DNA of 58,570 nucleotides, from contig JAIYDG010000525.1 of NCBI GenBank assembly GCA_027487625.1, positions 1-58,570 of the forward strand, written 5' to 3'. Origin of the DNA: Bacteroidota bacterium (GTDB lineage Bacteria; Bacteroidota; Bacteroidia; UKL13-3). A program made the translations under genes and the position numbers. Under the pieces are notes generated by a model. That model saw only the letters and a list, made by a program, of their open reading frames with translations. It did not search any database and was not told where the DNA came from. This document shows, in pieces, positions 24,417-47,062 of the stretch; position 1 is the first letter of the stretch; every line of letters starts with the position of its first letter.

Positions 24417-25438
24417 GGGTGAATTTCTGAAATCTCAAATTTAGGAGAACCTTTTAAACCATCAACAGAATAAAAATCAGTAAACCTTAATTTAAAGAAT
24501 TTTGGTTGAGGTTCTTTTGTTTTGATGATATAATTTACGTGATTTCTAGTTTTATATCTTCCATTTATGAAATCGTAATTTTTCCAGTCGAATCCAATAA
24601 TATCTCTTCTTGTATGAAAATCTAAATTGCTAATTTCTTTAAAACCAATGTTTTCATAATGTAGAGTGCTATCAACTGCAACAGAAATATTTTCATTATT
24701 TATGTAAATTCCTGTAACGGTATATAGCAGTGGAGGTTTGAATTCGTAATAAATCCAACGGTATCTCAGAAAACAAAACTGCCAGTCTTTTTTGTAAGGT
24801 TCAAAATCTAAAAATTTTGGATTACCTTCTCCAAAACTAAAATAGGTATTTTGTTTTAATGGGTTTTTCGGAACTTCAATTTGTTTAATGTTTTTTCCTT
24901 TGATATCACAGATTTCTATGAAATAGGAGTAAGGTGTTACTCCTAATATTTTAAATTGATAAAATCTATATGGATCTTGTTTTAGAATTCCTCTGTCAAT
25001 AACATAAACAGAATCCTTACTCATCATGTTTTTATCACACCAGCTTATTAAAGAAATTGAGTCACCACCGCTAGCCTCGTCCCATCTATAATGTAAATAT
25101 TCTGGATCATTTACTCTTTCAAACCTTGTTTTACCTGAATTAGCAATTAAAACACCAGCACCGCCATTCATGGTGATTCTAAATCCAAAAGATTTTGATT
25201 CAAAAGCTAAATCCCAATCGCTGCATTTAACTGAAGTTTTAAGTGGAATTGAATCAAAAATGTTTAAGAATACTTGTGACTCATAATTTTCACCCAAATC
25301 CAATTGAATTACCCTTAAATCTCCTGCAGGTTTTGGAGGAAGTTTAACAGGCTTTTCTGCTTTTTCACAGGCCAAAAAACTTGTTACCAGCAAAAGTAGA
25401 ATCAGTGGATTTGAATAATATGTAATTGGTCTTTTCAA
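24413..25438 (-). CDS. HmuY-like lipoprotein (putative ligand/haem-binding partner of the TonB-dependent receptor)
   Basis: 341 aa. Lipobox FLACEK. The HmuY-type block is SDWDLAFESKSFGFRITMNGGAGVLIA. It overlaps the receptor gene by 4 nt. Confidence 0.6.
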   Translation of the reverse strand: MKRPITYYSNPLILLLLVTSFLACEKAEKPVKLPPKPAGDLRVIQLDLGENYESQVFLNIFDSIPLKTSVKCSDWDLAFESKSFGFRITMNGGAGVLIANSGKTRFERVNDPEYLHYRWDEASGGDSISLISWCDKNMMSKDSVYVIDRGILKQDPYRFYQFKILGVTPYSYFIEICDIKGKNIKQIEVPKNPLKQNTYFSFGEGNPKFLDFEPYKKDWQFCFLRYRWIYYEFKPPLLYTVTGIYINNENISVAVDSTLHYENIGFKEISNLDFHTRRDIIGFDWKNYDFINGRYKTRNHVNYIIKTKEPQPKFFKLRFTDFYSVDGLKGSPKFEISEIHP

Positions 25439-27483: not shown

Positions 27484-28806
27484 TTAGTTTACTAATAATT
27501 TCGCAGTATAAACTGAGCCTTCTGCTTGTAAGTTAACAAAATATATTCCTGAATTTAATCCTGATAAGTCTAAATCAAAACCACTGGTTAAATTCATTGG
27601 GTTTGTTGTTTGATTTGAAATCACTTTTCCACTCATATCTGTAATTAAAATTTGTACAGATTGACTTGGGTTTTTCAATTCAAAGTTAATTGTAGTTAAA
27701 CCAGAACTTGGGTTAGGGAAAATATTTACAGAACTAAATGCTGAATTGAATTCTGAGTTTCCAATCGGCAACAATCTGTATTTTAAAAGATTGAAATTGA
27801 TAAATTGTTTAGTTGGATCTGAGAAATAGCCTGTAAACACCAATCTCGCATAGTTACCATCATTGGCCTTTTTAGTGAAATAAGCTAAACTATCTTTAAC
27901 AGGCCAAGCTCCAGGAGTTGTAGTAATTACTTTCCAATCCCAACCAATATTTGCAATTTTTGAATTAAAGTATAAACTATCATTAGCTCCTCCAATTTTT
28001 AGGGTATCAGCTCCTGGTGACATTATTTTGGCACTTTGCATCATTGGATGGTTTAACACTCCCATAACTGGATACATCAAAGTTTGACCAAATAATGTAA
28101 CAAGCGTTTTGTATTTGGTAAATAATAAATCCCAGCTATTTAAAGCTGGTTCTCTATCAATTACTTGTTTTGAAAATACATTATAGTAAGCAAATAATTT
28201 ATTGTTAAAGTTTGATTTATTGATTGTTACAGTATTGCTATCTGTTCCATTAATGTTAGAAATTGTGAATACCCATTGTGTATCATAAACAATTTTCGAT
28301 ATCATTAACTTTTTTAAAGATTTTGGTGCTGAAGGATTTGGAGAAGTAGTTATTGCCAATAACCAGATTTTGTTACCCAATACATCCCTGCTGTTCATAT
28401 CATATTGGCCCCAACCATAATCAAATGGGTTCGAAAGATTTCTTTGTTGGTTAAATGCGCCAATATCCCAGCTACTATCACTATTGAAGAAAGTTGGCCA
28501 GCTCATCCATTGCGCGGTATCAAAATCATTCCATTCGCTTGAAGTAAAAGACGATTTAAATAACTCAACACCTGAACCTTCATTAATTCTAATAGTTGCA
28601 GCTTGCATTGTTTTAAACGGAGGCTGAGCTTTTCTTGTTGCAAAAGCCAAATGCCAGTTGTTTGTTCTTACAGTATCTTTTGTTCCTTTTTCAATATTGT
28701 AATAAACATCTAATACATTTCTAGGTAGCATTGTAACACTATCAGAAATTTCTTGAGCATTTAAAAAGGTTGGTAGAATGAATAAGGCGAGTAATAATTT
28801 CTTCAT
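27484..28806 (-). CDS. HmuY-like domain protein with a T9SS C-terminal sorting domain
   Basis: I moved the start to MKKLLLALFILPTFLNAQE (ATG at complement of 28804-28806). HmuY-like blocks are NNWHLAFATRK...IRINEGSGVE and NSWDLLFTKYK. The T9SS CTD spans 27487-27732 (IFPNPSSGLTTINF...GIYFVNLQAEG). Confidence 0.6.
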   Translation of the reverse strand: MKKLLLALFILPTFLNAQEISDSVTMLPRNVLDVYYNIEKGTKDTVRTNNWHLAFATRKAQPPFKTMQAATIRINEGSGVELFKSSFTSSEWNDFDTAQWMSWPTFFNSDSSWDIGAFNQQRNLSNPFDYGWGQYDMNSRDVLGNKIWLLAITTSPNPSAPKSLKKLMISKIVYDTQWVFTISNINGTDSNTVTINKSNFNNKLFAYYNVFSKQVIDREPALNSWDLLFTKYKTLVTLFGQTLMYPVMGVLNHPMMQSAKIMSPGADTLKIGGANDSLYFNSKIANIGWDWKVITTTPGAWPVKDSLAYFTKKANDGNYARLVFTGYFSDPTKQFINFNLLKYRLLPIGNSEFNSAFSSVNIFPNPSSGLTTINFELKNPSQSVQILITDMSGKVISNQTTNPMNLTSGFDLDLSGLNSGIYFVNLQAEGSVYTAKLLVN

Positions 28807-28879
28807 TTGTTGATTTTTGTGGGTACAAAGAAAGTTGATAGGCGTTAGGCATAAAAATGACAAAGGTCATCTTGCTTCC

Positions 28880-32047: not shown

Positions 32048-32068
32048 AAACCTACTTTAAATGTATAA

Positions 32069-32100
32069 AAAAGGCTCGTCTCATACAGACGGGCCTTTTT
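32069..32100 (+). terminator. Rho-independent terminator after the acyl-CoA dehydrogenase gene
   Basis: Stem aaaaggctcgtc / gacgggcctttt with one G.U wobble, a 7-nt loop and a T5 tail. It lies 22 nt after the stop. Confidence 0.8.
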
Positions 32101-32220: not shown

Positions 32221-32580
32221 ATGAAAACAACAATTACTAAAACCACCCAAGTTTCTACCCAAGCTAAATCAGCAAACGAACAGGTTTCTTTAAACAAACC
32301 TTATGTTTTGTGGTCGAAAACCAGCAAAGTAGATTTATTAAGTTTAGAAGTAATAGATGGTTTTCTTAGAGACCATATGATGTTACATTTTTCAAAACAA
32401 AGAAAAGAGTCAGAAACCTTAATTGTTGAATTTGAAAGAGTTAGGTCTTCCAAATTAAACAACTATTTTAGTGGTGAAATTCTTCAGGAATTGGCTGGAT
32501 TAAAATCATTGGTAGTTCACATTTTAGAAAATAAAACGCTAATTTCGGAAACTATCATTCCTATAAATGAATTAAATTAA
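32221..32580 (+). CDS. Hypothetical small protein (no signal peptide), first gene of the surface locus
   Basis: 119-aa ORF with no motif I recognise. The stop lies 4 nt before the giant-protein ATG. Coding status is supported only by length and position. Confidence 0.5.
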   Translation: MKTTITKTTQVSTQAKSANEQVSLNKPYVLWSKTSKVDLLSLEVIDGFLRDHMMLHFSKQRKESETLIVEFERVRSSKLNNYFSGEILQELAGLKSLVVHILENKTLISETIIPINELN

Positions 32581-32584
32581 AAAT

Positions 32585-35500
32585 ATGAAAAGAATATTAC
32601 TCTTATTACTTATTGGGATTGGAATAATTGGGCGAGTTAACGCCCAATTTGGTTTTGATACCTACAATGTTGCGGACGGTGAAATTAATTCCACTTACCA
32701 TGATGTTTCAGCAAACAGAATGTATGTAGCTGGTGATTTCAAGGCATTTGGAGACACCTCTTCTGCTGGTTTTGCTGCATTAAATACAACAAGCGGAGCC
32801 TTAATTAAAAACAGTATTCCTGACATAAATGGACAGGTTAACAAAATTGTTTCAGATGGTTCAACCGGTTTTTTTATAGCTGGTAATTTTACTCAAGTTG
32901 GCTCATTAAATAGAAATTATGTGGCACACATCTTGGCTTCTGGTCAGGTAGATCCCAATTTTAATGCAGCAATTGATACGAAATTAGGGGGCTCAGCTAA
33001 AAGTTTAGCTTATTCTGCTAATGGTTTAGTAATTATTGGGAATTTTAATTCCGTAGCAGGAAGTACCAGAAATGGTATTGTTATGGTAACTCCTTCAAAT
33101 GGTTCACTAAAAACACATTTTGCTCCTAATATTTCAGGATCAATAAATGAAGTTCTTTATCATAATAGTTTACTTTTTATTGCCGGTAGTTATACTTTAC
33201 TCAACTCGAATGGAAGTTCTACTGGTAGAACTAATTTTTGTGCTTACAGTGTAAATGCAAACTCATCTACTTTACAGGTAACAAGTTTTAATCTTTCGTT
33301 TCAAACCGGAGGAGTAGTTCATACAATGGCAATTTCTCCTGGTGCAAATCCAGCTTTGTTTTTAGGGGGTAATTTCACTTTAACAAGTAATCCTGCTTTA
33401 ACTAAATTAATATCAGTTAATTTGCAATCAGGTACTTTAAATTCAAATTTTTTACCAGCAGTAAATGGAGAAGTATTGGCCCTAGCAATTCCTTTTGCCA
33501 ATTATATTTTAGTTGGAGGAAATTTTTCAAGTGCGGGTGGTGTTTCAAGAAGTTTTTTTACAGTATTATCTCCGGGAGGACAAGCATATTCATCTACAGC
33601 ATATAATGTGAATCCAAATGGAGGAGTTGGAAATATTACTTTTGCTTCAAGAGGAACTAATAATTGTTTAATAACAATTTCAGGTGCTTTTAGCAGCATT
33701 AATAGTACTACTGACCCCGCAACTCGTTATACTGCATGTTATGATTTGACAAGTACAGGCGGATTTACTTTTAATGCAGCTTATACAAATGGATTTTCTG
33801 GCGCTGTAAGTACAAGTTTTTTATCAAACAATAAGTTAATTTTTGGTGGAATTTTTCTATTTGCTGGAGGTATTAGATGCCCGCATTTAGCAGTTTTTAC
33901 GAATACAGGACAAATATTAAATACCTTAAATCCTACATATTTATATAGAACAAGTGCTTCACTTTCTATAAAATCAATTGCAAATATTGGTACTAATATT
34001 TATTTAGGAGGTAGATTTTTATCTAATAGTTTTGGAGGAAGAAATAATTTACTAAAGATATCTAAAACTACCGGTGCAATTGATTTAAATTTTTTCCAAA
34101 CCGCTGCTTCTTTGAGTAGCTCAATAAATGTTTTAAAGGCTGATGGAAATAACCTATACTTAGGTGGAGAATTTATAACTCTTGGAATTAGCAGTCAAAA
34201 TTTAACTAGACAAAGATTTGCGGCAATTAATACTGCTAACAACACAGTTTTGCCTTCAGTAAATTTTTCAGGTCCTGTAACTACTATTGCTATTGGTACT
34301 AACCATGTTTTTGTTGGAGGTTCGTTTAATTCCATCATTGCAACAGATTACCTGAACAATTTGGCTAGATTGCAAAAAACAAACTTATCAATAGCTGTAA
34401 GTACAAAATTTTTATTAGCTACTCCAAATACTTCTATGAGTCACAATAACATTAGAGATTTGAGTATTGTATATGGTGATTTATATTTAGGTGATGGAAG
34501 TATATACTATCAGTATGACCAATCAAACTTATTAATGAAAGCTATTTATAGGCCTACGAATTTTCAAAGTTTTACTGCAGTAAGGTCCATAATTCCAACA
34601 AGTTCAAATCAATTTGTAACTGATATCAATAATGGAAGTTGGTTTAAATCATTATTTATTGGAACAAACACACCTATTAATTCTTCTTATTATTCCGTGA
34701 GTCCAGTGAGTCAGGCCGCTGCTTTTGGATGGGATTTTAAATTATTATCTTATACTGCCTCAAATAACAAGGTGTTAGGAACTGTTTATTTTTCAAAGGG
34801 CGGTCAAGCAGGTTATAAATTAGTTTCATTTGTAGCACAGAATCCAACTGCTCCAAGTGCACCTAGTGTTTCTGCAAGCAATTTGAGTTTTCAATCAACA
34901 ATAAACTCTATTACAATAAATTGGACTAAGGGTAATGGAACAAAAAGAATTGTATTGGCTAAAAAGGGAGGAATTCCAACAGCACCAACATCATTGCCAG
35001 CTGGTGTTTTAGGAAATGCATCTTTTGGTAATGGTACAAATTTGGGTAATGGAACCTATGTAGTTTATGATGGAGATGGACAATCATGTACAATAAATAA
35101 TTTATGGATTAATAGTTTATATGGCTTTCGTGTAATAGAATACAATGAAAACTCTTGGGTTAGAACTTATAGATTAACTGCTACACCATCTGGTTCGGCT
35201 TCAACTTTAGATTATACTACACCAACAATTACCTCTAGTAATTTGGTTTTAAATTCGATTAATACCAATTCAGCTTCTTTTAGCTGGAGCAATGGAAATG
35301 GAGATAGCAGATTGTTTTTAATCAAAAGGAACAGTCCTATTACTTTTACTCCTGTTAATGGCAATTCATATTTTTCAAACAGTACATCTTCTGATGGAAC
35401 TATTATTGTTAACTCAAGCGCTTCATTATCGCAAGTAGCCTCTAATTTGATACCAGGTTCAACCTATTATGTTAGAATAATTGAATACAATGGAAATGGT

Positions 35501-38500
35501 GTAAGTGCTAGGTATTTAAACTCAAATACTACGAATACAATAGTTAATACAACTAGTTTTGCAGCAACTCCAACACTTCCATCTTCTGCAATTAATGTGA
35601 CTCCTTCAATAAATTCAGCAGACATAAATTGGGTTAGAGGTAATGGTGGTCGTTCAATTGTTCTTGTTTCAAAAGTTGCAAATAGTCCTTCATTTGGAAC
35701 TTCAGCAATTAATTTAGTAAATGGAACTTCATATTTACCAATGCCAAGCTTATCAAGCACTATTACCGGAGGTTTTGTAAATTATAATGTTTCTGGTATT
35801 AACTACACTAGCCAAGTGGTTTATTTAGGCACTGGAAACTCTGTTGCAATTTCTAGTTTACAACCAAATTCAATTTACCGTGTAGCAGTATGTGAAGTAA
35901 ATGGTGGTGGTTTTAATGGTACAGGACAATTAGCATATTTAACTAATCCCCGTCCAATTGCAACATTTACTACCTTACCTCAAATATTTGCTCCAAGTAT
36001 TATTCCAACTTCACATAATTCAGTTGTAAGCCAGGAAGATGCTAATTTAAATTGGGCTGGTGGAAATGGAACTCATAGTTTGGTTGTTATGAAAAAAGAA
36101 GCTCCTGTTTCAATCATTCCAACTGATAATAATATTTATACGCCACAAAATTCTTTTGGCACCGGAACTCAATTAGGAGTAGGAAATTATTCGGTTTATT
36201 CTTCAACTAGTCAGGGTTTTGTAAATGTACAAAACTTAGAGCCTGATGTTGAATACCACTTTGCTATATATGAATACAACCAAAACGGAGCAATCGTAAA
36301 ATATAATACCAATCCTTACAGAGGAATCTTTAGAACTTCAAAATCTTGGCCAGTTAAAGCTGGTGGTTCTAATAAAGATGCTGGTGGTGGTGTAACAACA
36401 GATGCTTCAGGAAATGTATATGTAGTTGGTTCTTTTGAAAATTCAGCCTCATGGGGTACAAGAACTATTGTTTCTAATGGTGGTAATGATATTTTCATGA
36501 CCAAATATTCTCCAAATGGAAAAGTACTTTGGGCAGTTAATCAAGGTGGTGCAGACCCTGATGCAGCTTCTTCTGTTGCAATAGATGCAGCTGGAAATGT
36601 TATTATGACAGGAAGTTTTAGAGGTACTGGTACATTTGGAACAGGGAATTCTTACATAAGTTCGGGTCTTGATGATATTTTCATTTCAAAATTAGATCCA
36701 AGTGGAAATGTTATCTGGAGTAAAAAAGCAGGTGGAACTGATCAGGATGTTGCATTGGCTATTACTACTGATAATTTAAATAACATTTATATCGCTGGTT
36801 ACTTTAAAGGAATACTAACTTTCCCAGGTACTTCTACATCATTAACTGGTGCTGGTGGTACTGATGCATTTTTGGCTAAATATGATTCCAATGGAAATCT
36901 TATTTGGGCAAAATCTGCTGGGGGTACAGGAAATGATTTTGCACATGGAATTGCATTAAATGGGGGCAATGTTGCTATGGTTGGCCAATTCGATTTAACT
37001 GGAAATTTCTCAGGAACAAACTTAATTAGTGCAGGTAGTTCTGATGCTTTTATAGCGGAATATGGAACTTCTACAGGAAATATGAATTGGGCAAGCAAAA
37101 TAGGAGGTACTGGTGCTGATATAGGTTTTGCCATTACTTCTGCAAATAATTCGTATGTTATAACAGGTCAGTTTTCAAATTCAATTTCAATTGGCTCAAG
37201 TAATTTTATTAGTGCAGGAAACTCTGATGTGTTTATTTGTAGATATAACTCAAGTGGTGTTCCTGTTTGGGCTACAAAAGCTGGTGGAGTTTCACAAGAT
37301 GCTGGTCGTGGTATTGCAATAAATAGCTTAGGAGATAAAGTATTTGTTACAGGAAGTTTTGCTGAAACTGCTAATTTCGGATCAACTAGTTTATCAAGTT
37401 TTGGTAATTTAGATGTATTTGTTACCACAGTTGATTTCACTACTGGTGATATTGAAACTGTTTACCAGAATGGCGGTCCTGCAGATGATGAAGCAAGAGG
37501 AATTACTGCCGGAACTACAAATACAAGCTTTATAACAGGTTACTTCAATGGTCAAGGTGCTTTCGGTAATGTTGATTTAACTAGTGCAGGCGATTGGGAT
37601 ATTTTTGTACATAAATTTACTTTGATAGTAGGTTCTAATTTGCAAAATGGATTAGTTGCCTGGTACAAAATGAACGGAAATGCTAATGATGCCTCAGGTA
37701 ATGGTAATAATGGAGTTGCTCAAAATCTGACTTCAACTTCAGATAGAAGTAACGCTGTTAATAAAGCATATTCGTTTAATCCTAGTGCAACAACTGTTGA
37801 AGTTTTAGGTGTCAATCCAGTTGATGTTGCTGGAACAGCAACTACTAATAATTCTACTTATACTGTTTGGTTAAAAACTGCACCAGATTTTGCGAATTCA
37901 AATATTCCAAAACCAATTTTCACTACAGCAATAGATGGTTTTGAATATAGAAGTATTTCATTATCAGATATTGGTTCTGTAAACTATTCATTTTTCAATG
38001 CAAGTTCAGGAACTCAGATAGATATGATTTCAGCAAATCCAATTCAGGACAATTCATGGCATCATTTAGCTGTTGTTTACAAAGCTGGTTTAGAAGTTAT
38101 ATTCTATCTTGATGGAATTGAGTTTGGTAGAACTGGTTTAACTAGTTTTGAACCTGAAACTTTCTTAGGTACAAATTGGAATATTGGTAGCTTAACAACT
38201 ATCGATAGATTAAATCCAATTTATTCATTCAATGGTTCTCTTGATGATATGAGAATTTACAGACGTGCTTTATCAAGTTCAGAAATCAATGAAATTAAAA
38301 ATTTAAGTGCATTAAATTCAATAGTTGAAAATTCTGATAAATCTAATAAAGCTCCTTTAGATAATATTTCAATGTATCCGAATCCAAGTACAGGTAAAGT
38401 TTATTTAAATCTTGGAAGGGCTGCTAAAACTGTTGATGTATCTATTTTAGACTTATCTGGTAAAGTTTTATTCAATCAAAATTATCCTGAAGTTGCAGAT

Positions 38501-38605
38501 GGTTTAATTCAATTTAACGCATCTGATTTAGGTTCTGGTTTATATATAGTTCGCGTTGAAGAGAATGGTGAAGTTTCTACCAAGAAATTAATTATTTCTA
38601 AATAA
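32585..38605 (+). CDS. Giant T9SS-secreted surface protein: delta-60/DUF5122-like propeller repeats + 4 FN3-like modules + 7-blade SBBP propeller + LamG + T9SS CTD
   Basis: 2006 aa with signal peptide MKRILLLLLIGIGIIGRVNAQ.
- About 32650-34840: some 12 repeats of the type (Y/F)(I/L)GGxFxxxGxxxRxxxA.
- About 34845-36330: four modules (NWTKGNGTKRIVLAKKG, SWSNGNGDSRLFLIKRN, NWVRGNGGRSIVLVSKV, NWAGGNGTHSLVVMKKE).
- About 36355-37622: seven SBBP blades (GG.D.A.GI..D..GNVY..G.F......G...D.F..KY...G..W).
- About 37649-38300: LamG (LVAWYKMNGNANDASGNGNNG ... DDMRIYRRALSSSEI).
- 38372-38602: CTD (MYPNPSTGKVYLNL...GLYIVRVEENG). Confidence 0.9.
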   Translation: MKRILLLLLIGIGIIGRVNAQFGFDTYNVADGEINSTYHDVSANRMYVAGDFKAFGDTSSAGFAALNTTSGALIKNSIPDINGQVNKIVSDGSTGFFIAGNFTQVGSLNRNYVAHILASGQVDPNFNAAIDTKLGGSAKSLAYSANGLVIIGNFNSVAGSTRNGIVMVTPSNGSLKTHFAPNISGSINEVLYHNSLLFIAGSYTLLNSNGSSTGRTNFCAYSVNANSSTLQVTSFNLSFQTGGVVHTMAISPGANPALFLGGNFTLTSNPALTKLISVNLQSGTLNSNFLPAVNGEVLALAIPFANYILVGGNFSSAGGVSRSFFTVLSPGGQAYSSTAYNVNPNGGVGNITFASRGTNNCLITISGAFSSINSTTDPATRYTACYDLTSTGGFTFNAAYTNGFSGAVSTSFLSNNKLIFGGIFLFAGGIRCPHLAVFTNTGQILNTLNPTYLYRTSASLSIKSIANIGTNIYLGGRFLSNSFGGRNNLLKISKTTGAIDLNFFQTAASLSSSINVLKADGNNLYLGGEFITLGISSQNLTRQRFAAINTANNTVLPSVNFSGPVTTIAIGTNHVFVGGSFNSIIATDYLNNLARLQKTNLSIAVSTKFLLATPNTSMSHNNIRDLSIVYGDLYLGDGSIYYQYDQSNLLMKAIYRPTNFQSFTAVRSIIPTSSNQFVTDINNGSWFKSLFIGTNTPINSSYYSVSPVSQAAAFGWDFKLLSYTASNNKVLGTVYFSKGGQAGYKLVSFVAQNPTAPSAPSVSASNLSFQSTINSITINWTKGNGTKRIVLAKKGGIPTAPTSLPAGVLGNASFGNGTNLGNGTYVVYDGDGQSCTINNLWINSLYGFRVIEYNENSWVRTYRLTATPSGSASTLDYTTPTITSSNLVLNSINTNSASFSWSNGNGDSRLFLIKRNSPITFTPVNGNSYFSNSTSSDGTIIVNSSASLSQVASNLIPGSTYYVRIIEYNGNGVSARYLNSNTTNTIVNTTSFAATPTLPSSAINVTPSINSADINWVRGNGGRSIVLVSKVANSPSFGTSAINLVNGTSYLPMPSLSSTITGGFVNYNVSGINYTSQVVYLGTGNSVAISSLQPNSIYRVAVCEVNGGGFNGTGQLAYLTNPRPIATFTTLPQIFAPSIIPTSHNSVVSQEDANLNWAGGNGTHSLVVMKKEAPVSIIPTDNNIYTPQNSFGTGTQLGVGNYSVYSSTSQGFVNVQNLEPDVEYHFAIYEYNQNGAIVKYNTNPYRGIFRTSKSWPVKAGGSNKDAGGGVTTDASGNVYVVGSFENSASWGTRTIVSNGGNDIFMTKYSPNGKVLWAVNQGGADPDAASSVAIDAAGNVIMTGSFRGTGTFGTGNSYISSGLDDIFISKLDPSGNVIWSKKAGGTDQDVALAITTDNLNNIYIAGYFKGILTFPGTSTSLTGAGGTDAFLAKYDSNGNLIWAKSAGGTGNDFAHGIALNGGNVAMVGQFDLTGNFSGTNLISAGSSDAFIAEYGTSTGNMNWASKIGGTGADIGFAITSANNSYVITGQFSNSISIGSSNFISAGNSDVFICRYNSSGVPVWATKAGGVSQDAGRGIAINSLGDKVFVTGSFAETANFGSTSLSSFGNLDVFVTTVDFTTGDIETVYQNGGPADDEARGITAGTTNTSFITGYFNGQGAFGNVDLTSAGDWDIFVHKFTLIVGSNLQNGLVAWYKMNGNANDASGNGNNGVAQNLTSTSDRSNAVNKAYSFNPSATTVEVLGVNPVDVAGTATTNNSTYTVWLKTAPDFANSNIPKPIFTTAIDGFEYRSISLSDIGSVNYSFFNASSGTQIDMISANPIQDNSWHHLAVVYKAGLEVIFYLDGIEFGRTGLTSFEPETFLGTNWNIGSLTTIDRLNPIYSFNGSLDDMRIYRRALSSSEINEIKNLSALNSIVENSDKSNKAPLDNISMYPNPSTGKVYLNLGRAAKTVDVSILDLSGKVLFNQNYPEVADGLIQFNASDLGSGLYIVRVEENGEVSTKKLIISK

Positions 38606-38615
38606 ACCTTTTTTA

Positions 38616-38655
38616 GAAGTCAAAAACTCATCTTGAGTTTTTGACTTCTTTTTTT
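38616..38655 (+). terminator. Strong Rho-independent terminator between the two giant genes
   Basis: Perfect 15-bp stem gaagtcaaaaactca / tgagtttttgacttc with a 3-nt loop and a T7 tail. It starts 10 nt after the stop of gene 1 and ends 20 nt before the ATG of gene 2. Confidence 0.85.
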
Positions 38656-38675
38656 AATTTTTAATCCAATTTGCA

Positions 38676-41600
38676 ATGCAAAAAAAACTACTTTTTATTA
38701 TAATTTCTTTCTTTACTATTCATCAATCTTTCTCTCAAACTTTACAAAATAATTTTTGGGAAACCGATGGTGTTGTAAATTCAATGGTTAAACTAAATAA
38801 TAAACTTTATTTAGCTGGAGAGTTTAATTATGTTGGGCCTAATACTGGTTCTTTTGCAGGTTTTTACGCTACAAGTCAACAAAATTTTGATAAATCGGTC
38901 AATATAAATGGTATTGTACATGCAATAGCAAAAGATGCAACTGGCCGAGTTTATATTGGTGGTGAATTTACAGAACAAGGCAGAACCAATTTATTGGTTT
39001 TAAACCCTGACGGCACATTAAATTCCTTAAATATTTCAGTAAATGGTCCTGTTAAAGCATTAAAAGTTACTGCAAATATTCTTTTAGTAGGAGGTAGTTT
39101 TAGTGAAGTAGGATCTGCTGAACGTTTAAATTGTGCTGCAATTAATATTTCTAATGGACAAATTTTGCCATTGGCTCCAAATCCTAATGGAGAAGTTAAT
39201 GCATTTGAAATTGCTGGTGCTGAAATTATACTTGGTGGTTCATTTACAAGTGTAGCTTCACAAGAAAGATATGGAATTGCTTCAATTAGCGCGATTAGTG
39301 GTAGTTTACAATCTTTAAATACTAAAGTTGAAGGAACAGTAAAGTCATTATTATTAGATAATGCTACTTTATTTATTGGTGGATTATTCACCAAATTGGA
39401 TACAAGTGATAGGAATAACTTAGGTGCAGTTAATATGTTTGATAACACTGTTACTTTCTTTAATCCTAACGTTAATGGTAATGTTAATTCCATGGCCAAG
39501 GATGAAAGCATTCTTTATATTGGCGGAGCTTTCTCTTCAATTGGAAATGAAACACGTAATAATCTAGCTGGTTTAAATAAACTTACAGGTTTAGTTAGTA
39601 CATTTAATCCTTCACCAAATAATGAAGTATTTTCTTTATCACACTCATCGGGAATTTTATATTCTGGAGGATTATTTACCAATATTTCTGGTCAACCTAA
39701 AAAGTTTTTTGCAGCAATAAATTCAAATGCGAGTTTAGCTTCATGTCCTTTAATTTCAGGAAGTGTTAATGCGGTAAGTAGTTCTGGTGATACAGTATTC
39801 GTAGGTGGAGATTTTTCAAGTTTTGGTGGTGCTAATCGTTCTAACTTGGCAGCTGTTGATTTTCAAACTGGTGTTCCAACTTCGTTTGGTCCAATGGTAA
39901 ACAATGGTATTCATGTTATAAAAGAGTATTCTGGTTTATTGATTCTTGGTGGTAAATTTACTAGCATTGGTTCTATTGCAAGATCTGGATTAGCAATTAT
40001 TGATACCTTATCAGGAGTTCCGATAACACTTAATGCAAATGTTAATGGTTATGTAAATGATATAGAAATTGCGGGTAATGAAGCATTTTTAGCTGGTAGT
40101 TTTTCTTCTATTTCAAATGAAAATAGAAGTAATTTAGCGTCAATTTCACTTGCTACAGGTGTTGTAGATTCTTGGAATCCAGGTTCAAATGATGAAGTTC
40201 ATTCATTATTGTTACACGATCAATACTTATATGTTGCCGGTGCTTTTACTACTATTGCTTCTTCAAATAGAGGTAGATCTGCTAGATTCGATATCGCTTC
40301 TGGAAATGTACTTAATAGTTGGAACCCTTCTGCAAATGGTACTGTTTATGATATTCTTGTAGATGATGATAAGGTATATTTGGCAGGAAGCTTTTCGGGA
40401 TTAAATGAAGATTTTTCAAGCTCAATTGCGGCTGTTGATACTTCCATTGGTGCAAAAATTTCTACTTTTATTCCAGTTGTATCCGATGAAATGCACACTT
40501 TGCTTTTAAATGGTTCAATCTTATTTGCTGCAGGAAATTCAACTTTTGGAATTATACCAGTTAATGTAGAAAATTCAGAAATCTTGAATTTAGGTATTCA
40601 AGGTGAATTTACTAGTATTAACAATCTTGATTTAATTGAAGGTAACTTGTTTATGGCTGGCGACTTTAAATTAACTGAAGTTTCTAATCGTAGGAATTTT
40701 GCTGTTTTTAATATGAATGAAATTAGCCCAAATGTTTCTGCTTCATCATTAAGTTTTACTGAGGTTTCTCCAATTAGTATGAAATTAAATTTTACTAAAG
40801 GAAATGGAAAAAAGAGAATAGTTATAGCTCATGAAGGTTCTGCAGTAGATTCTCTTCCTTCTGATGGTAAGTATTATGCAGCTAACTCAATGTTTGGTAT
40901 AGGTGAAAGCATTGGATTTGGTAATTATGTTATTTATAATGGTACTGAAAATTCAGTTGAATTAACTAGTTTGAATATTGGAACTACTTATCACTTTTCT
41001 GTTATTGAGTATAATGGATTTGGTTCATATTCAAAATATGCATCATCAAATGCTTTAATTGGTTCACAAGCTACAATTCTAGGTTATGAAGCACCTACGA
41101 TATCAGCTTCTTCAATTCAATCAAAAGAAATCAAAACCAATTCAATGAAAATTTCATGGACAAAAGGTAATGGTTCAAAAAGAATTGTTGTTGCAAAAGA
41201 AGCTTCTGCTGTAAATGCAATTCCTACAGATAGCACAGCCTTATTTGCTAGTGATAATTTTGGTAATGGTTATGATTTAGGCGATGATAATTATGTGATT
41301 TATAACGAAAGTGGCGATAGTCTTGAATTATTAAATTTAAAACAAGGAACTACCTACCATTTTGCTGTTTTTGAATACAATGGTATTGATGCATTTGCTA
41401 GGGTAAAAACAGATAATCCAGCTTTAGCTAATTTTACTACACTCACACCTGCTGCAGAGCCAACTGAAATTTCTACAGGAATTACTTTCTCTGAAATTGG
41501 AACATCTTCTGTTAAGGTTTCTTGGACTTCAGGAAATGGAGCTAGTAGAATAATTGTTGCTTCTGAAAATCAAGATTTAATGAGCTCACCCGAAGATGGC

Positions 41601-42464
41601 GATAATTATTTTACTGATGGCAATTTTAGTGGTAATTCTTATGGTTTTTCAAACTCTGAAAAGGTTGTATATATTGGTACTGGAAATTCATGCACAGTTA
41701 CAGGCTTAAATCCGGGTTCTACTTATTACTTTGGTATTGTTGAATTTAATGGTACTGGATTTACTGTTAATTATTTACAATCTTCAGTTGCTAAAGGTAA
41801 TGTGAAAATTAAAATTCCTGGAACTCCTCCGGTTAATCCATCAAGGTCATTAACTTTTCCAAGAGTATCATCCGATTCTCTTTATTTGAAATGGATTAGT
41901 GGAATTGGTCAAGGTAGAATAGTTTTTGCAAGAAAAGGTGCCCTTCCTTCTGTTAAACCAGTATCTGGTGTTTCTTATAATGTAAATGCAAGTTTCGGAT
42001 TAGGTGATTCTTTGTCTGATGGCTCATTTGCAATTTACGATGGAAGTTCAAATGAAGCTTTTATTGCTAATCTTGAACCTAATACAATTTATGGTGTTGA
42101 AGTTTTTGATTATAATATTGGTGATTTCGGAAAAACTTATCAAACAGATTCATTTGCATTTGGACTAAAATCAACTGCTCCACTAACTGGTTTAAAAAAG
42201 TTTATAAGCGAAGATCAAGTAAGAATTTATCCAATTCCAGCTCAAAATCAATTGAATATTGACTTTGCTAAATCGATTAAAGGCAAATTAGAAATCAAAA
42301 TTTTCGATTTATCAGGGAAAGCAGTTTATGAATCATTGATAAGTCAAAATTTATCAAATCAAAATTTACAAATTGATTTATCTAATTTAGAGAATGGGAA
42401 TTTCATTCTGTATATCTCAAATGGTAAAGAATTTGTTACCAAGTCTTTAGTTGTTTCTAAGTAA
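38676..42464 (+). CDS. Large T9SS-secreted surface protein, a paralogue of the preceding gene: about 14 delta-60/DUF5122-like propeller repeats + 4 FN3-like modules + T9SS CTD
   Basis: 1262 aa with signal peptide ...IHQSFSQ. The roughly 50-aa repeats are very regular (LVGGSFSEVGSAERLNCAAINISNG, YIGGAFSSIGNETRNNLAGLNKLTG, FVGGDFSSFGGANRSNLAAVDFQTG and others). The four modules are NFTKGNGKKRIVIAHEG, SWTKGNGSKRIVVAKEA, SWTSGNGASRIIVASEN and KWISGIGQGRIVFARKG. The CTD spans about 42219-42461 (IYPIPAQNQLNIDF...GNFILYISNG). Confidence 0.9.
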   Translation: MQKKLLFIIISFFTIHQSFSQTLQNNFWETDGVVNSMVKLNNKLYLAGEFNYVGPNTGSFAGFYATSQQNFDKSVNINGIVHAIAKDATGRVYIGGEFTEQGRTNLLVLNPDGTLNSLNISVNGPVKALKVTANILLVGGSFSEVGSAERLNCAAINISNGQILPLAPNPNGEVNAFEIAGAEIILGGSFTSVASQERYGIASISAISGSLQSLNTKVEGTVKSLLLDNATLFIGGLFTKLDTSDRNNLGAVNMFDNTVTFFNPNVNGNVNSMAKDESILYIGGAFSSIGNETRNNLAGLNKLTGLVSTFNPSPNNEVFSLSHSSGILYSGGLFTNISGQPKKFFAAINSNASLASCPLISGSVNAVSSSGDTVFVGGDFSSFGGANRSNLAAVDFQTGVPTSFGPMVNNGIHVIKEYSGLLILGGKFTSIGSIARSGLAIIDTLSGVPITLNANVNGYVNDIEIAGNEAFLAGSFSSISNENRSNLASISLATGVVDSWNPGSNDEVHSLLLHDQYLYVAGAFTTIASSNRGRSARFDIASGNVLNSWNPSANGTVYDILVDDDKVYLAGSFSGLNEDFSSSIAAVDTSIGAKISTFIPVVSDEMHTLLLNGSILFAAGNSTFGIIPVNVENSEILNLGIQGEFTSINNLDLIEGNLFMAGDFKLTEVSNRRNFAVFNMNEISPNVSASSLSFTEVSPISMKLNFTKGNGKKRIVIAHEGSAVDSLPSDGKYYAANSMFGIGESIGFGNYVIYNGTENSVELTSLNIGTTYHFSVIEYNGFGSYSKYASSNALIGSQATILGYEAPTISASSIQSKEIKTNSMKISWTKGNGSKRIVVAKEASAVNAIPTDSTALFASDNFGNGYDLGDDNYVIYNESGDSLELLNLKQGTTYHFAVFEYNGIDAFARVKTDNPALANFTTLTPAAEPTEISTGITFSEIGTSSVKVSWTSGNGASRIIVASENQDLMSSPEDGDNYFTDGNFSGNSYGFSNSEKVVYIGTGNSCTVTGLNPGSTYYFGIVEFNGTGFTVNYLQSSVAKGNVKIKIPGTPPVNPSRSLTFPRVSSDSLYLKWISGIGQGRIVFARKGALPSVKPVSGVSYNVNASFGLGDSLSDGSFAIYDGSSNEAFIANLEPNTIYGVEVFDYNIGDFGKTYQTDSFAFGLKSTAPLTGLKKFISEDQVRIYPIPAQNQLNIDFAKSIKGKLEIKIFDLSGKAVYESLISQNLSNQNLQIDLSNLENGNFILYISNGKEFVTKSLVVSK

Positions 42465-42493
42465 ATTTAATTTCCTTCACCTTTATTTAAAAT

Positions 42494-44617
42494 ATGAATA
42501 AATTTCTACTAATTTTAGGTAGTTTCCTTTTACTACTTGGAGCATGTAAAAAAGACCTGAATTTTAACAAATTCGATGAACTTACTTTGAGTCCGGAATA
42601 TGCAATTCCTCTTGCTATTATTGATTTGGAAATGAACGACCTTTTAAAAGAGGACTCTAATATTGTTTATGACAATACAGGATTAATTCATTTTACTTTT
42701 AAAGAAGATACGATTGCGTCATTTCCGGTGGATAGTTTTGTTAAACTTCCTGAATTAACTCCAATTACTTCAAATTCAACTTTAGGTGTTCTTGATATTG
42801 ATAATACCTTTACTTCTGATGTAACTTCATTAGGTGATATGGCTACAAATTTTAATGCGCCCACAAAGGCAGCATTAAATTCAGCTAATGGAACAGTTAC
42901 TATCTTTCCAGCAATTACCGATAATAATAATACAGTAACAATTTTGCCGTATTCTAATTCTACTTTTTCTAATATTAATCTTTCTCAAGGATTTTTAGTT
43001 TTAGAATTTAGAAACCGTTTACCAGTTACAATTGATGTTGTTAGGCTGAATCTTTTCAATATGATTCCTTTTCAAAGTTTAATTGGTCAAGTTCTTTTTA
43101 CAAATATCCCTCCAGGTGGTGGTAAAAAAGATTCGATAAATTTGGCTGGATCAACATTAAGCAGCAGTCTTGGCTATAGTTTACCTCAATTTAGGTCTTT
43201 TGCAAGTCAAGCGCCTGTTCTAGTAAATTTGAATGATTCTATAATTGTTGATGCTACTACAAGTAATTTAAAATGTGCCTCTGGATTTGCCGTATTTCCA
43301 AATACAGAAATAAATGCACAAACTCTTGATATCGATATTAAAGCTGATGACCCAACAGCTCAGATAAAATTTGCTACTTTTAATTCAGGTTTAATTAACT
43401 ACAAATTATCTTCAACCATAAAAGAAAAGTTAAGCCTTAAAATTTTATTCCCAGGTGCTACAAAAAATGGTACCCCATTTCCTCCAATTGAAATTGATGT
43501 GAACAATGAAAGTAAATCTGGAGCGATTGATATCAGCGGAATGAAAATGGATTTGACTCAAGATATTTCTCAGCCTTATAACAAGTTGAAGGTTTTGGTT
43601 AAACCGACTTTAGTTTCGTCAGGTCAATTAAAATTGTTTGATTCGTCTGATTATGTGAATGCAGAATTTTCTTTTGATAATTTCCAGTTTGAAGCTATTG
43701 AAGGAAATTTAGGAAAGAAAACAATTCCAATTGATGCAAGTGATATAAAGTTAGATATGTTGGAAGACTTTAACACTGGATTTAATCTTGATGATCCTAA
43801 ATTAAAAATCAATACCAATAATTCAATGGGTATTCCAATTACTGTTTCCTTAGATGTTAATGGAGTAAGTGGTTCGGGGGCTACTCAAAAATTAAATGGA
43901 CCTCCATTTACAATTCCCTACCCAACTAGCTTAAATCAAGGAAGTGTAAACGGAACTTTTGTTTATGACAAAACTAATTCCGACTTGCCAAAATTAGTTT
44001 CTCTACCTCCTAAACAGGTTACTTTTGCTGGAGTAGCACAACTTGATACAAGCGGTAATTTTAACAGAAACAATGATTTCATTAAACGCGGATCATCAAT
44101 TACTGTTGGCTTCGAAATGGATTTACCTTTCAGTTTAAAAACAAATGACTTTACTTTATCTGATACAAGCGATAATCCTTTCTTTGAAGTTAGACCTGAT
44201 GGTACTTTAGGTAACTTTTTGTTAGGAAAAGACTTCGATTCTAACAATGTGGAATTCATAGATTTAATTGTTAAAATGGATAATGGTATTCCTTTTGATG
44301 GGAGTTTGTATATGTTTTTTGCTGATAAAGATGGTATCATTAAAGATTCAGTTTCAACTCCAAGATTTATTCAAGCTGCAATTCCTGATGCAAATGGGAA
44401 AACTATAAAAAATACGGTGAGTGTGAATACTGTTCGATTAACAGGTCAAAACTTAGCCGCTATGCAAAGGTCTAATTTGTCTAAAATGATTTTCAAATTC
44501 CAAATTAGTACCTATGCAAATGGCTCTCAAATCGTGAAAATCTATTCTGATTATAAGTCGAAAATTGGTCTAAGTGCCAAAATTAAGTTGAAGAATTATC
44601 AACCTCTTAAAAAGTAA
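42494..44617 (+). CDS. Hypothetical lipoprotein (707 aa), no recognisable domain
   Basis: Lipoprotein signal MNKFLLILGSFLLLLGAC. A long Ser/Asn/Thr-rich ORF in beta-rich style, separated by 29 nt and 24 nt from the flanking locus genes. Confidence 0.7.
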   Translation: MNKFLLILGSFLLLLGACKKDLNFNKFDELTLSPEYAIPLAIIDLEMNDLLKEDSNIVYDNTGLIHFTFKEDTIASFPVDSFVKLPELTPITSNSTLGVLDIDNTFTSDVTSLGDMATNFNAPTKAALNSANGTVTIFPAITDNNNTVTILPYSNSTFSNINLSQGFLVLEFRNRLPVTIDVVRLNLFNMIPFQSLIGQVLFTNIPPGGGKKDSINLAGSTLSSSLGYSLPQFRSFASQAPVLVNLNDSIIVDATTSNLKCASGFAVFPNTEINAQTLDIDIKADDPTAQIKFATFNSGLINYKLSSTIKEKLSLKILFPGATKNGTPFPPIEIDVNNESKSGAIDISGMKMDLTQDISQPYNKLKVLVKPTLVSSGQLKLFDSSDYVNAEFSFDNFQFEAIEGNLGKKTIPIDASDIKLDMLEDFNTGFNLDDPKLKINTNNSMGIPITVSLDVNGVSGSGATQKLNGPPFTIPYPTSLNQGSVNGTFVYDKTNSDLPKLVSLPPKQVTFAGVAQLDTSGNFNRNNDFIKRGSSITVGFEMDLPFSLKTNDFTLSDTSDNPFFEVRPDGTLGNFLLGKDFDSNNVEFIDLIVKMDNGIPFDGSLYMFFADKDGIIKDSVSTPRFIQAAIPDANGKTIKNTVSVNTVRLTGQNLAAMQRSNLSKMIFKFQISTYANGSQIVKIYSDYKSKIGLSAKIKLKNYQPLKK

Positions 44618-44641
44618 TTTAACTTAAAAGCATTTACGACA

Positions 44642-47017
44642 ATGAAAAGACTATTATTTATAATAACTATATTCCTTTGTAGCCTTTTAGCTGAGGCTCA
44701 AACTAATCTTACTTTTTATAATTTCAATTCTGTTGCACAAAGTAACTTATTGAATCCTGCATTACCTTCCCGACAAGGTTTTACCCTTGGTTTACTCGAT
44801 TTTTATGGTCATGGTTATGTTCCAGGTGTTACTATGTACGATATTTTCAGGAAAGATGAGACACAGGTAACCACAGTTGATAAATTACTTTCTAATCCGA
44901 ATTACCATTTGAGAGATATGCAGTTTAATTCTGAAATCAATCCTCTTTTTCTTGGATTTAGAATCAGAAAAAATTATTTCTCTTTTGGGATTCAAAATAC
45001 ATTAAATCACAATATTGGTTTGCCTAAAGATATACTTGGATTGGTTTATTACGGCAATGGAAGTACCTCTAAACTATTTGGTAAGCCGGTAAATATTGGT
45101 GAATTAGATGTTGAAATGAGCGCTATAACTTCTATTCATGCAGCTTACTCAAGAGATTTTGGCGATAAACTAAGCATTGGTATTAGAGCTAAATACAATA
45201 TTGGAATCTACCATACAAAGGTTGTTCGCAACCAAACTACACTTCTAACAGATAGTGGTGATAATGGTGCAATCAGATTAAATGCATCTACAGATTATGA
45301 GGCAGTTGCTTCTGGTGCTGATAGAATTGAAGATTTAGGAAATGCTACAACTTCTGCAGACCAAGTTAGAATTGCTACCGATTATTTGAATAAGCCAGTT
45401 GGTTCAGGTTATAGCTTTGATTTTGGTTTGAATTATAAAGCAAATTCAAAATTGAGTTTATCTGCTTCATTTTTAGATCTTGGGGTAATGAACTGGTATA
45501 ATGGTAAAAATTATTCAAGAAAAGCCACCTTTACATATGAAGGCGTTTTGACAGATGATCCTTCTAAACTCGATTCTGCTTTCGAAGACTTAGCTGACTC
45601 AGTTGGAAAAATATTAAAAAAAAAAAAAAAATCAGGTTCTTATACTACATCATTTAATCCAAAAGTTTATTTGGGTTTAAATTATAATCTTTATAAAAGC
45701 GGTACTTTAGGACTAGTTGCTTATGGTGAAATGTGGAAAGGCAAGTTTTATCCTGGAGCATCTATTGCATTCACTCAAAGAGTATGGAAAATTCTTGAGT
45801 TAAAGGTAAATTATAATATGTACCGAGAGCAATATTCAAACATTGGAGCTGGTTTGGCTGTGCATCTTGGTCCTCTTTCATTTTATGCTTTATCTGATAA
45901 TATGTTGGGCAATTACAATTGGGAAAAATCACATTATTCAAATACAAGAGTTGGTTTAAATATCAATATTGGTAACCGCTTTGATAGAGATAATGATGGT
46001 GTTCCTGATAGAAAAGATAAATGTAAAACTATTCCAGGAACACGTTTAATGAAGGGTTGTCCTGATGGCGATAAAGATTTAGTTGCTGATAATGTAGATG
46101 AATGCCCTACTGTAAAAGGTTCTCCAAAAGCAAAAGGCTGTCCAGATGCTGATGGTGACGGAGTAAATGATGCGTCTGATAGCTGTGTAAGTGTAAAGGG
46201 TGATCCTATTTTACATGGTTGTCCTGATACTGACGGCGATGGAGTAGCAGATTACAAAGACCAATGTCCTTCAATAAAAGGTTTATCTGAAAATTATGGT
46301 TGCCCAGATAAAGATGATGATGGTGTTTTAGATAAAGATGATGCTTGTCCTGAAAAGGCTGGTCCTAGATATCTAGATGGTTGCCCTGATATGGATAAAG
46401 ATAGTGTTGCTGATAGATATGATGCTTGTCCAGCTGTTCCGGGTTTAATCCAATTTAATGGCTGCCCTGATTCCGATGGTGATGGTATTATCAATAGTAA
46501 GGATAGTTGCATGGCTATTGCTGGTTTAGCTATCTATTCAGGATGTCCAGATTCTGATGGTGATTCTATTCCTGATTATAGAGATTTATGTCCTTTAGTG
46601 GCAGGAAAACCAGAAAACAATGGTTGTCCTAAGATTGAACCTAATGTGGTTGTTTTAACTGTTGAAGAACAAAAAGTAATAAATGAAGCATTCAGTAACT
46701 TGGAATTTGAAGTAGGTACCAGTAAAATTGCTGAAAAGTCGTTGAATAGTTTAGAAGAATTAGCAACTTTATTGATTTCAAAACCACTGTATAAGTTAGA
46801 AATTAGTGGTCATACTGATAATGTTGGAAATCCTGCTGCTAACTTAAAATTAAGTCAAAGCAGAGCTAATGCAGTAAAATCATTCTTAGCCTCAAAAGGA
46901 GTTTCAGTTGCTAGTATGAAAGCAACTGGATTTGGTTCTAAAAAACCAATTGCCGATAATAAAACAGCTGAAGGTCGTCAAAGAAACCGAAGAGTTGAGT
47001 TTAAAATTGTGAAATAG
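44642..47017 (+). CDS. Outer-membrane protein: N-terminal predicted beta-barrel + 8 thrombospondin type-3 Ca-binding repeats + OmpA C-terminal peptidoglycan-binding domain
   Basis: 791 aa with signal peptide ...SLLAEAQ. The first roughly 445 aa show an alternating beta-strand pattern, and the N-terminus FYNFNSVAQSNLLNPAL is faintly PorP/SprF-like. TSP3 repeats (CPDxDGDGVxDxxDxCPxxxG) follow. The OmpA_C domain reads LEISGHTDNVGNPAANLKLSQSRANAVKSFL...GRQRNRRVEFKIV. Confidence 0.88.
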   Translation: MKRLLFIITIFLCSLLAEAQTNLTFYNFNSVAQSNLLNPALPSRQGFTLGLLDFYGHGYVPGVTMYDIFRKDETQVTTVDKLLSNPNYHLRDMQFNSEINPLFLGFRIRKNYFSFGIQNTLNHNIGLPKDILGLVYYGNGSTSKLFGKPVNIGELDVEMSAITSIHAAYSRDFGDKLSIGIRAKYNIGIYHTKVVRNQTTLLTDSGDNGAIRLNASTDYEAVASGADRIEDLGNATTSADQVRIATDYLNKPVGSGYSFDFGLNYKANSKLSLSASFLDLGVMNWYNGKNYSRKATFTYEGVLTDDPSKLDSAFEDLADSVGKILKKKKKSGSYTTSFNPKVYLGLNYNLYKSGTLGLVAYGEMWKGKFYPGASIAFTQRVWKILELKVNYNMYREQYSNIGAGLAVHLGPLSFYALSDNMLGNYNWEKSHYSNTRVGLNINIGNRFDRDNDGVPDRKDKCKTIPGTRLMKGCPDGDKDLVADNVDECPTVKGSPKAKGCPDADGDGVNDASDSCVSVKGDPILHGCPDTDGDGVADYKDQCPSIKGLSENYGCPDKDDDGVLDKDDACPEKAGPRYLDGCPDMDKDSVADRYDACPAVPGLIQFNGCPDSDGDGIINSKDSCMAIAGLAIYSGCPDSDGDSIPDYRDLCPLVAGKPENNGCPKIEPNVVVLTVEEQKVINEAFSNLEFEVGTSKIAEKSLNSLEELATLLISKPLYKLEISGHTDNVGNPAANLKLSQSRANAVKSFLASKGVSVASMKATGFGSKKPIADNKTAEGRQRNRRVEFKIVK
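45616..45631 (+). repeat. A16 homopolymer inside the barrel-TSP3-OmpA CDS (currently in frame)
   Basis: Counted directly: tta + aaa x5. It encodes L-KKKKK-S within the predicted barrel region. Confidence 0.95.
45983..46624 (+). repeat. Coding tandem repeat array: one 25-aa unit plus seven 27-aa (81-bp) TSP3 units
   Basis: The units run DRDNDGVPDRKDKCKTIPGTRLMKG, CPDGDKDLVADNVDECPTVKGSPKAKG, CPDADGDGVNDASDSCVSVKGDPILHG, ... CPDSDGDSIPDYRDLCPLVAGKPENNG. The period was counted from the translation. Confidence 0.9.
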
Positions 47018-47031
47018 AAATATAAAGCCAT

Positions 47032-47062
47032 AAAAAAGGCGACCCTAGGGTCGCCTTTTTTT
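47032..47062. terminator. Bidirectional Rho-independent terminator between the convergent OmpA-family gene and ndk
   Basis: A6 + ggcgaccc-ta-gggtcgcc + T7, a perfect 8-bp GC-rich palindromic stem. Confidence 0.9.

Follow-up and report, generated by a model that had tools for sequence, protein, structure and literature searches.

Five genes occupying positions 32221–47017 of contig JAIYDG010000525.1 (assembly GCA_027487625.1, a Bacteroidota bacterium of the UKL13-3 lineage) raise the question of whether they constitute one cell-surface module or two units that have become neighbours. The window, as the whole analysed stretch of 58,570 nt is called below, carries at this place, all on the + strand, a gene for a 119-aa protein (32221–32580), genes for two giant cargo proteins of the secretion system of type IX (T9SS; giant 1, 2006 aa, 32585–38605; giant 2, 1262 aa, 38676–42464), a gene for a 707-aa lipoprotein (42494–44617) and one for a 791-aa outer-membrane protein (44642–47017), in which a beta-barrel of the family DUF5723 is fused to TSP3 repeats and an OmpA_C domain. 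The open reading frames (ORFs) lie exactly where an earlier note on this DNA had placed them, separated by gaps of 4, 70, 29 and 24 nt. The same note suggested that the barrel protein could be an anchor or an adaptor for export, dedicated to this locus. Such a role of the cassette is not supported by the data obtained here, and the reading that we prefer, with a probability of about 0.6, is that the locus consists of two separable units: a lipoprotein–barrel cassette and two giant cargo proteins with type-A C-terminal domains (CTDs), inserted beside it in one lineage.

This reading is based first of all on gene order in related genomes. The synteny scan took one genome per species and covered 28 loci, all of them from uncultured bacteria, mostly freshwater Bacteroidia metagenome-assembled genomes (MAGs). 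A DUF5723 gene was found directly 3′ of the lipoprotein gene in every locus with downstream DNA (26/26), while the giants stood directly upstream of this pair in 17 of the 26 and were not at that position in 9, a number that rises to 12 if loci L002, L004 and L006 are counted. Co-occurrence of all five genes, by which the earlier note had proposed to judge its own idea, is therefore inconsistent. Since synteny holds with the lipoprotein and not with the giants, the constant partner of the barrel is the lipoprotein rather than the cargo. On a neighbour-joining tree of the lipoprotein the giants are distributed patchily: the basal branches have none adjacent, and within the giant-bearing clade adjacent giants are absent at least three separate times.

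Two relatives show how the arrangement may vary. Locus L014 is gene-for-gene collinear with positions 23364–47495 of the window, minus the giants between the homologue of the 119-aa gene and the lipoprotein gene, and the end of a giant-like gene is found ~8 kb further upstream. In L044 both giants lie ~8 kb upstream of the cassette, with four opposite-strand and three same-strand genes between them and the acyl-CoA dehydrogenase gene. In both relatives the giants stand behind opposite-strand genes, at the position occupied in the window by an amylase gene. Based on these data we regard the giants as a movable two-gene unit, which resides at different positions in related genomes and, in the lineage of the window, is flanked by the 119-aa gene on one side and the lipoprotein gene on the other. 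That they were acquired recently by horizontal transfer was also considered and rejected, GC content being uniform across the region (0.30–0.355).

Separability was registered from both sides. Nine distant DUF5723 loci were sampled, and none of them has a Por_Secre_tail gene nearby. In five (L006, L007, L037, L039 and L120) the product of the upstream gene is a lipoprotein whose homology to the 707-aa protein is clear (E values between 5e-12 and 1.6e-173), in L038 the match of the upstream lipoprotein is weak (E = 5e-7), and in L005 an upstream lipoprotein is present without detectable similarity to the 707-aa protein. The lipoproteins of L007, L037, L038 and L120 share ~95 residues at the N-terminus as well as the C-terminal domain, the middle part being variable. 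As a rule of thumb for annotation, a DUF5723 barrel gene usually has the gene of its partner lipoprotein immediately before it. On the other side, relatives of giant 2 were found in 79 metagenome loci, only 4 of which contain the cassette, and orthologues of the giant pair or its more distant full-length relatives stand without an adjacent cassette in L044, L050, L070 and L095.

The barrel is assigned to DUF5723 (PF18990) with a score of 237.6 bits, the cut-off being 26.8; residues 39–419 (44756–45898) cover positions 1–376 of the 376 in the model. It is preceded by a signal peptide with predicted cleavage before Q20, and the motif NPA is found at residues 38–40. The expectation that this part of the protein would model as a beta-barrel was borne out: AlphaFold2 (AF2), supplied with 27 homologues, gave a model with a predicted local distance difference test score (pLDDT) of 81.6 and a predicted template modelling score (pTM) of 0.79. 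A Foldseek search with this model returned matches to FadL, TodX, TbuX and BamG at probability 1.0 and template modelling (TM) scores of 0.42–0.52. [quoted passage not shown] Entry 9n2d is the BAM complex of F. johnsoniae, and chain 9n2d_B was assigned to BamG because the matched chain is a FadL-like barrel.

The C-terminal part is, as had been described, a TSP3 spacer followed by a peptidoglycan-binding OmpA_C domain. Besides a degenerate first copy, the spacer (45983–46681; PF02412, 64 bits) consists of the eight predicted repeats, each with a ‘GCP’ signature and a period of 27 residues, and OmpA_C (PF00691; 46706–46990, residues 689–783) scores 76.2 bits, well above the cut-off of 27.2. This tail is optional in the family: there are 589-aa forms without OmpA, distant members are barrel-only, and the combination TSP3–OmpA is confined to the clade studied here. 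In the full-text literature DUF5723 was met only twice, each time in passing.

The second member of the cassette had been described as an orphan lipoprotein of no recognisable domain. Its lipobox (LLGA-C18) is evident and there is indeed no Pfam or NCBIfam match, but the protein is not an orphan: at a threshold of E ≤ 1e-3 a profile built from 31 homologues found 4,694 representative clusters, of which 1,771 were at E ≤ 1e-30. Wherever the name of a family member was checked, it read ‘hypothetical’. Together with DUF5723 this family, of ~4,700 clusters and without a Pfam or NCBIfam model, makes up a large unstudied outer-membrane gene pair. The AF2 model of the lipoprotein (pLDDT 85.7) is an all-beta chain of sandwich or jelly-roll domains. 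Foldseek gave only generic jelly-roll and beta-sandwich matches, the best being 4h3w (BDI_1231), itself uncharacterised, so that no function follows; the profile found no match at E ≤ 10 among PDB sequences, BAM chains including BamH being among those searched. Internal repeats were rejected, since hhalign comparison among the five domain blocks revealed no significant similarity. Kinship with Omp28 was dismissed as well: none of five distant partners has a Pfam match, and weak ‘Omp28_seleno’ matches from NCBIfam fall on the sequences of barrel proteins, not on lipoproteins. The partners vary in length from 204 aa, the smallest seen, to 1,632 aa, and in the number of domains from about 1 to more than 8. 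Three members of the family (P0111, 1632 aa; P0116, 1311 aa; P0134, 1487 aa) are 2–3 times longer and contain 6–9 profile-matching stretches, one of these extra-long proteins originating from Schleiferiaceae.

Both giants are type-A T9SS cargo, as had been proposed. Hydrophobic leaders are visible at their N-termini, and their CTDs exceed the cut-offs of both PF18962 (27 bits) and TIGR04183 (23 bits), with 49.9 and 42.9 bits for giant 1 (38372–38596) and 54.3 and 36.5 bits for giant 2 (42225–42455). The two proteins are paralogues; their collinear alignment spans about 1,270 residues, of which 27% are identical (E = 3e-69). The claim that they share one architecture stands for the propeller, the four FN3-like modules and the CTD; it does not stand for ~700 residues that giant 2 lacks and that in giant 1 form an SBBP-like propeller (36569–37618, residues 1329–1678) and a Laminin_G_3 domain (37838–38290, residues 1752–1902). 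Propellers follow the signal peptides (residues 1–750 in giant 1 and 1–680 in giant 2) and in both cases gave matches of the DUF5122/Rax2 type, in agreement with the earlier assignment; fn3 and Pur_ac_phosph_N matches were obtained too. The four FN3-like modules (34853–36319 and 40725–42125) carry the motif W-x-x-G-N-G-x-x-R-I-V plus E-Y-N, of which E-Y-N has no match in the fourth module of giant 2. Giant 1 has orthologues in 17 species-level loci.

The N-terminal propellers (32585–34834 and 38676–40715) diverge about twice as fast as their surroundings in loci L008–L035. Between L009 and the window, for instance, they retain 36–47% identity, where the lipoprotein retains 83%, the barrel 92% and the nucleoside diphosphate kinase (NDK) encoded next to it 98%. 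Such rapid change suggests that exposed surfaces are under diversifying selection. Of the public sequences the one closest to the window, with 98% identity in the lipoprotein, is L008 (CALRIT020000016.1), found in a MAG labelled as the cyanobacterium Vulcanococcus limneticus; this contig is clearly of Bacteroidota, with T9SS CTD genes and the DUF5723 cassette, and is probably a binning contaminant. Glutamine is the predicted first mature residue of giant 1 (32645), giant 2 (38736) and the 791-aa protein (Q20, 44699), and in DUF5723 proteins the first mature Gln is nearly invariant. This fits the ‘Q-rule’ of Bacteroidota, i.e. pyroglutamate at the mature N-terminus.

The locus had been described as bounded by two terminators, and both flanking hairpins do fold well. 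The left one (32068–32100; about −20 kcal/mol, z = −7.7 versus shuffled sequence) has T-runs on both sides and closes the upstream acyl-CoA dehydrogenase gene, and the right one (47032–47062; −20.3 kcal/mol, z = −4.6 versus shuffled sequence), followed by a T-run, is common to the convergent NDK gene. What had been overlooked is a third hairpin inside the locus, a perfect 16-bp stem with a T-run between giant 1 and giant 2 (38615–38649, +; −20.7 kcal/mol, z = −7.4). A stable hairpin occurs at this junction in 13 of 16 giant-bearing loci, its sequence being wholly different between lineages, so that the structure is kept and not the sequence. The next two gaps, those between giant 2 and the lipoprotein gene and between the latter and the barrel gene, are short and devoid of structure in the giant-bearing loci compared. 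Since the inter-giant hairpin is preserved and the later gaps are short and unstructured, it is likely an intrinsic terminator or attenuator, and the five genes are likely split by it into two transcription units, one with the 119-aa gene and giant 1 and another with giant 2, lipoprotein and barrel. Probably giant 1 ends at its own hairpin and giant 2 is co-transcribed with the cassette. As a terminator, attenuator or mRNA-stabilising element, the hairpin may set the ratio of giant 1 to giant 2. A scan for sigma-70 promoters, which is unsuited to Bacteroidota promoters, showed no enrichment (72 found versus 81 expected).

If the locus does consist of two units, how could they work? The pairing of barrel and lipoprotein rests on synteny; their docking, their topology and a load-bearing role are what we infer. 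The DUF5723 barrel would offer its own lipoprotein a dock in the membrane, in the way that BamG, a FadL-family barrel, anchors the surface lipoprotein BamH (PMC12611786), and docking might proceed through the conserved N-terminal ~95 residues of the lipoprotein. In the freshwater Bacteroidia clade the barrel has gained a periplasmic spacer of Ca-binding TSP3 repeats together with OmpA_C, and this tail could staple the complex to peptidoglycan, converting it into a load-bearing surface structure. Cargo of type A is exported through SprA and handled by PorV, and the giants would follow this general route (PMC12618676). The two units may be linked functionally: the data permit such a link but do not require it. 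The T9SS part of the locus is ordinary, a case of type-A cargo genes standing beside unrelated envelope genes, while the cassette is an undescribed pairing, a variation on the FadL-like barrel that holds a partner protein. FadL-like barrels of Bacteroidota have lately been shown to be holders of proteins rather than channels (PorV, PorP/SprF, BamG), and the cassette extends this theme.

The resemblance to BamG and BamH of F. johnsoniae (PMC12611786) lies in the combination of a FadL-family barrel and a lipoprotein whose domains are beta-sandwiches. The genes bamG and bamH are, however, non-adjacent (Fjoh_1412 and Fjoh_0823), unlike those of the cassette, and BamG has no TSP3/OmpA tail. Neither the barrel nor the lipoprotein shows sequence homology to its counterpart, the similarity being that of the fold alone.

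Several observations weigh against the two-unit reading or against particular steps of it. Searched against PDB sequences, the barrel profile found no match at E ≤ 10, entries of BamG, PorV and FadL included. The relation of the barrel to solved structures is therefore one of fold and not of family, and the parallel with BamG and BamH extends only to the fold and to the pairing of the genes, since a sequence-level relation to BamG, PorV or FadL of the PDB is missing. In two of the distant loci (L036 and L119) the DUF5723 barrel has no upstream partner at all. Surface exposure of the lipoprotein is also less than certain. The surface-export signal (LES) is an acidic stretch right after the lipidated cysteine or C-X-K-(D/E)2, the latter being its optimum (PMC5080379). 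The lipoprotein of the window begins with C-K-K-D-L-N, with one acidic residue and net positive charge, and its C-K-K-D-L is a partial match to that signal; distant partners have C-L-K-E-D (L038) and C-V-D-S-D-D (L007). Finally, the giants stay beside the cassette in 17 species whose lipoproteins are 47–98% identical, giant 2 being coupled to it tightly, and this persistence could reflect selection for co-expression.

The best surviving alternative, though a doubtful one, is that the cassette is a passive uptake channel of FadL type for hydrophobic or amphipathic compounds and the giants are unrelated neighbours. The lipoprotein would then be the extracellular partner that captures the ligand, in a Sus-like arrangement built on a FadL-type barrel. 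Transport pairs of barrel and lipoprotein, such as SusCD and BtuBG, are typical of Bacteroidota. The channels FadL, TodX and TbuX (PF03349) match the barrel in fold with TM scores of 0.44–0.52 and, along with CymD, are among its best structural matches. The motif N-P-[A/G/S] is invariant in 27 DUF5723 proteins ~18 residues past the predicted signal cleavage, i.e. where the hatch of a FadL-type channel is expected; for the NPA of the window protein this means that N38 and P39 are invariant and A40 is nearly so. Mutant entries of FadL in the PDB (N33A, P34A and delta-NPA) indicate that the motif has been studied there by mutagenesis. Two of the 27 relatives even have weak matches to the Toluene_X model PF03349 (4.4e-6), the window protein itself having none. 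Against this reading, BamG and PorV belong to the FadL family and are non-transporters. Fusion of TSP3 repeats and OmpA_C to a passive channel is unusual, the barrel differs from FadL, TodX and TbuX in having a partner that looks obligate, and the range of partner sizes given above resembles a stalk more than a lid that binds ligands. Catabolic or uptake genes are not conserved around the cassette; its neighbours are housekeeping genes such as those of NDK, cysteinyl-tRNA synthetase (CysRS) and acyl-CoA dehydrogenase.

The idea of the earlier note, according to which the lipoprotein and the barrel–TSP3–OmpA protein serve the giants as their own anchor or export adaptor, seems to us improbable. 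The FadL-family barrel would act here as a shuttle or holder similar to PorV or PorP, and OmpA_C would do the job of PorE at the peptidoglycan. This has a precedent: PorV and PorP-like proteins are FadL-family 14-stranded barrels that bind CTD proteins, and PorE bridges PorP to peptidoglycan (PMC9143113), so that a barrel and OmpA_C near T9SS cargo recall the set of PorP/SprF, PorE and PorV. The FadL superfamily fold, shared with PorV and PorP-like proteins, is the part of the ‘PorP-like’ suggestion that held. PorV (8gl6_F) is also among the Foldseek matches of the barrel, as a weak structural one (rank 47, TM 0.28–0.33). Giants and cassette are neighbours in 17 species-level and 4 metagenome loci, and the gap between giant 2 and the lipoprotein gene is short and unstructured. 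In a table of an outer-membrane vesicle (OMV) proteome of P. gingivalis, the DUF5723 protein Q7MT24 is next to the T9SS CTD protein Q7MT25 by UniProt accession. A tentative parallel suggested by these accessions would be a gene order PG2172 (cargo), PG2173 (Omp28 lipoprotein) and PG2174 (DUF5723).

What did not hold is membership of the PorP/SprF family. Neither PF11751 nor TIGR03519 matches the barrel domain at E ≤ 10, the 27 DUF5723 relatives give no match to PF11751 at E ≤ 1, ten barrel-only relatives have zero NCBIfam matches, and membership of the barrel in PorP/SprF, PorV or PorQ was ruled out by the lack of matches of the barrel or its relatives to any of their models in Pfam and NCBIfam. 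The likeness to PorE goes no further than OmpA_C. The respective model, NF052230, scores 51.7 bits over residues 685–771 at a cut-off of 600; PorE is a lipoprotein with tetratricopeptide repeats (TPR), a propeller and a carboxypeptidase regulatory-like domain (CRD), whereas the leader of the 791-aa protein is of signal-peptidase-I type (...AEA/QTN), without a lipobox, and none of the other PorE parts is there. The cargo is also of the wrong kind: according to PMC12618676, type A is recognised by PorV and PorP/SprF shuttles are dedicated to type B, while both cargo proteins here are of type A and their linkage to the barrel is not conserved. The cassette is maintained without cargo, adjacent giants being absent in 9–12 related loci and in all distant relatives sampled, and full-length relatives of the giants do without an adjacent cassette. 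A DUF5723 protein is present in the spirochaete Brachyspira, which is not known to have a T9SS.

The window contains two further CTD cargo genes, and about 10% of its genes encode CTD cargo. One (20631–23345, +) specifies an alpha-amylase of 904 aa that carries CBM53/CBM25 and Big_5 domains, another (27484–28863, −) a 459-aa protein without any other domain, adjoining the TonB-dependent receptor gene 25435–27483; both are type-A cargo of the T9SS. Because CTD cargo genes are so common here, their standing next to a cassette by chance is not unlikely.

Least probable of all is that DUF5723 and its lipoprotein represent a third functional class of FadL-family ‘holder’ barrels in Bacteroidota, next to BamG and the PorV/PorP shuttles, which in the freshwater clade acquired its TSP3–OmpA staple to peptidoglycan and was then recruited to organise the hypervariable giants at the surface, which, if true, would mean anchoring of type-A cargo by protein and by tethering to the cell wall, independent of attachment to anionic lipopolysaccharide (A-LPS), with a possible role in adhesion or, as the analogy of TraAB suggests, in recognition of kin. 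In the outer-membrane exchange pair of Myxococcus, traB is encoded together with TraA, a polymorphic surface receptor to which the fast-diverging outer domains of the giants may be likened. The TSP3–OmpA_C tail resembles the TraB model NF033763 (164 bits in six stretches, the best-scoring one within the TSP3/OmpA part), but far below the cut-off of 700, and the barrel domain alone has no match to it. The phylum and the sorting signal differ as well (MYXO-CTERM versus T9SS CTD).

Elsewhere in the window, two genes on the − strand encode a two-component sensor of hybrid type that bears Reg_prop propeller repeats (3635–7450) and a DUF4114/DUF4842 protein (12920–14923); no link of either to the locus was seen.

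The first gene of the locus appears to be loosely tied to the cassette from upstream. Its 119-aa product has no signal peptide, as had been noted, and no Pfam or NCBIfam match. In the giant-less loci L004, L006, L014 and L022 the gene directly upstream of that of the lipoprotein encodes a homologue with 25–38% identity; the giant-bearing locus L111 has no ORF like it. In the giant-less relative L006 an extra gene, encoding a 191-aa lipoprotein (5219–5794), separates the large lipoprotein gene from the homologue of the 119-aa gene.

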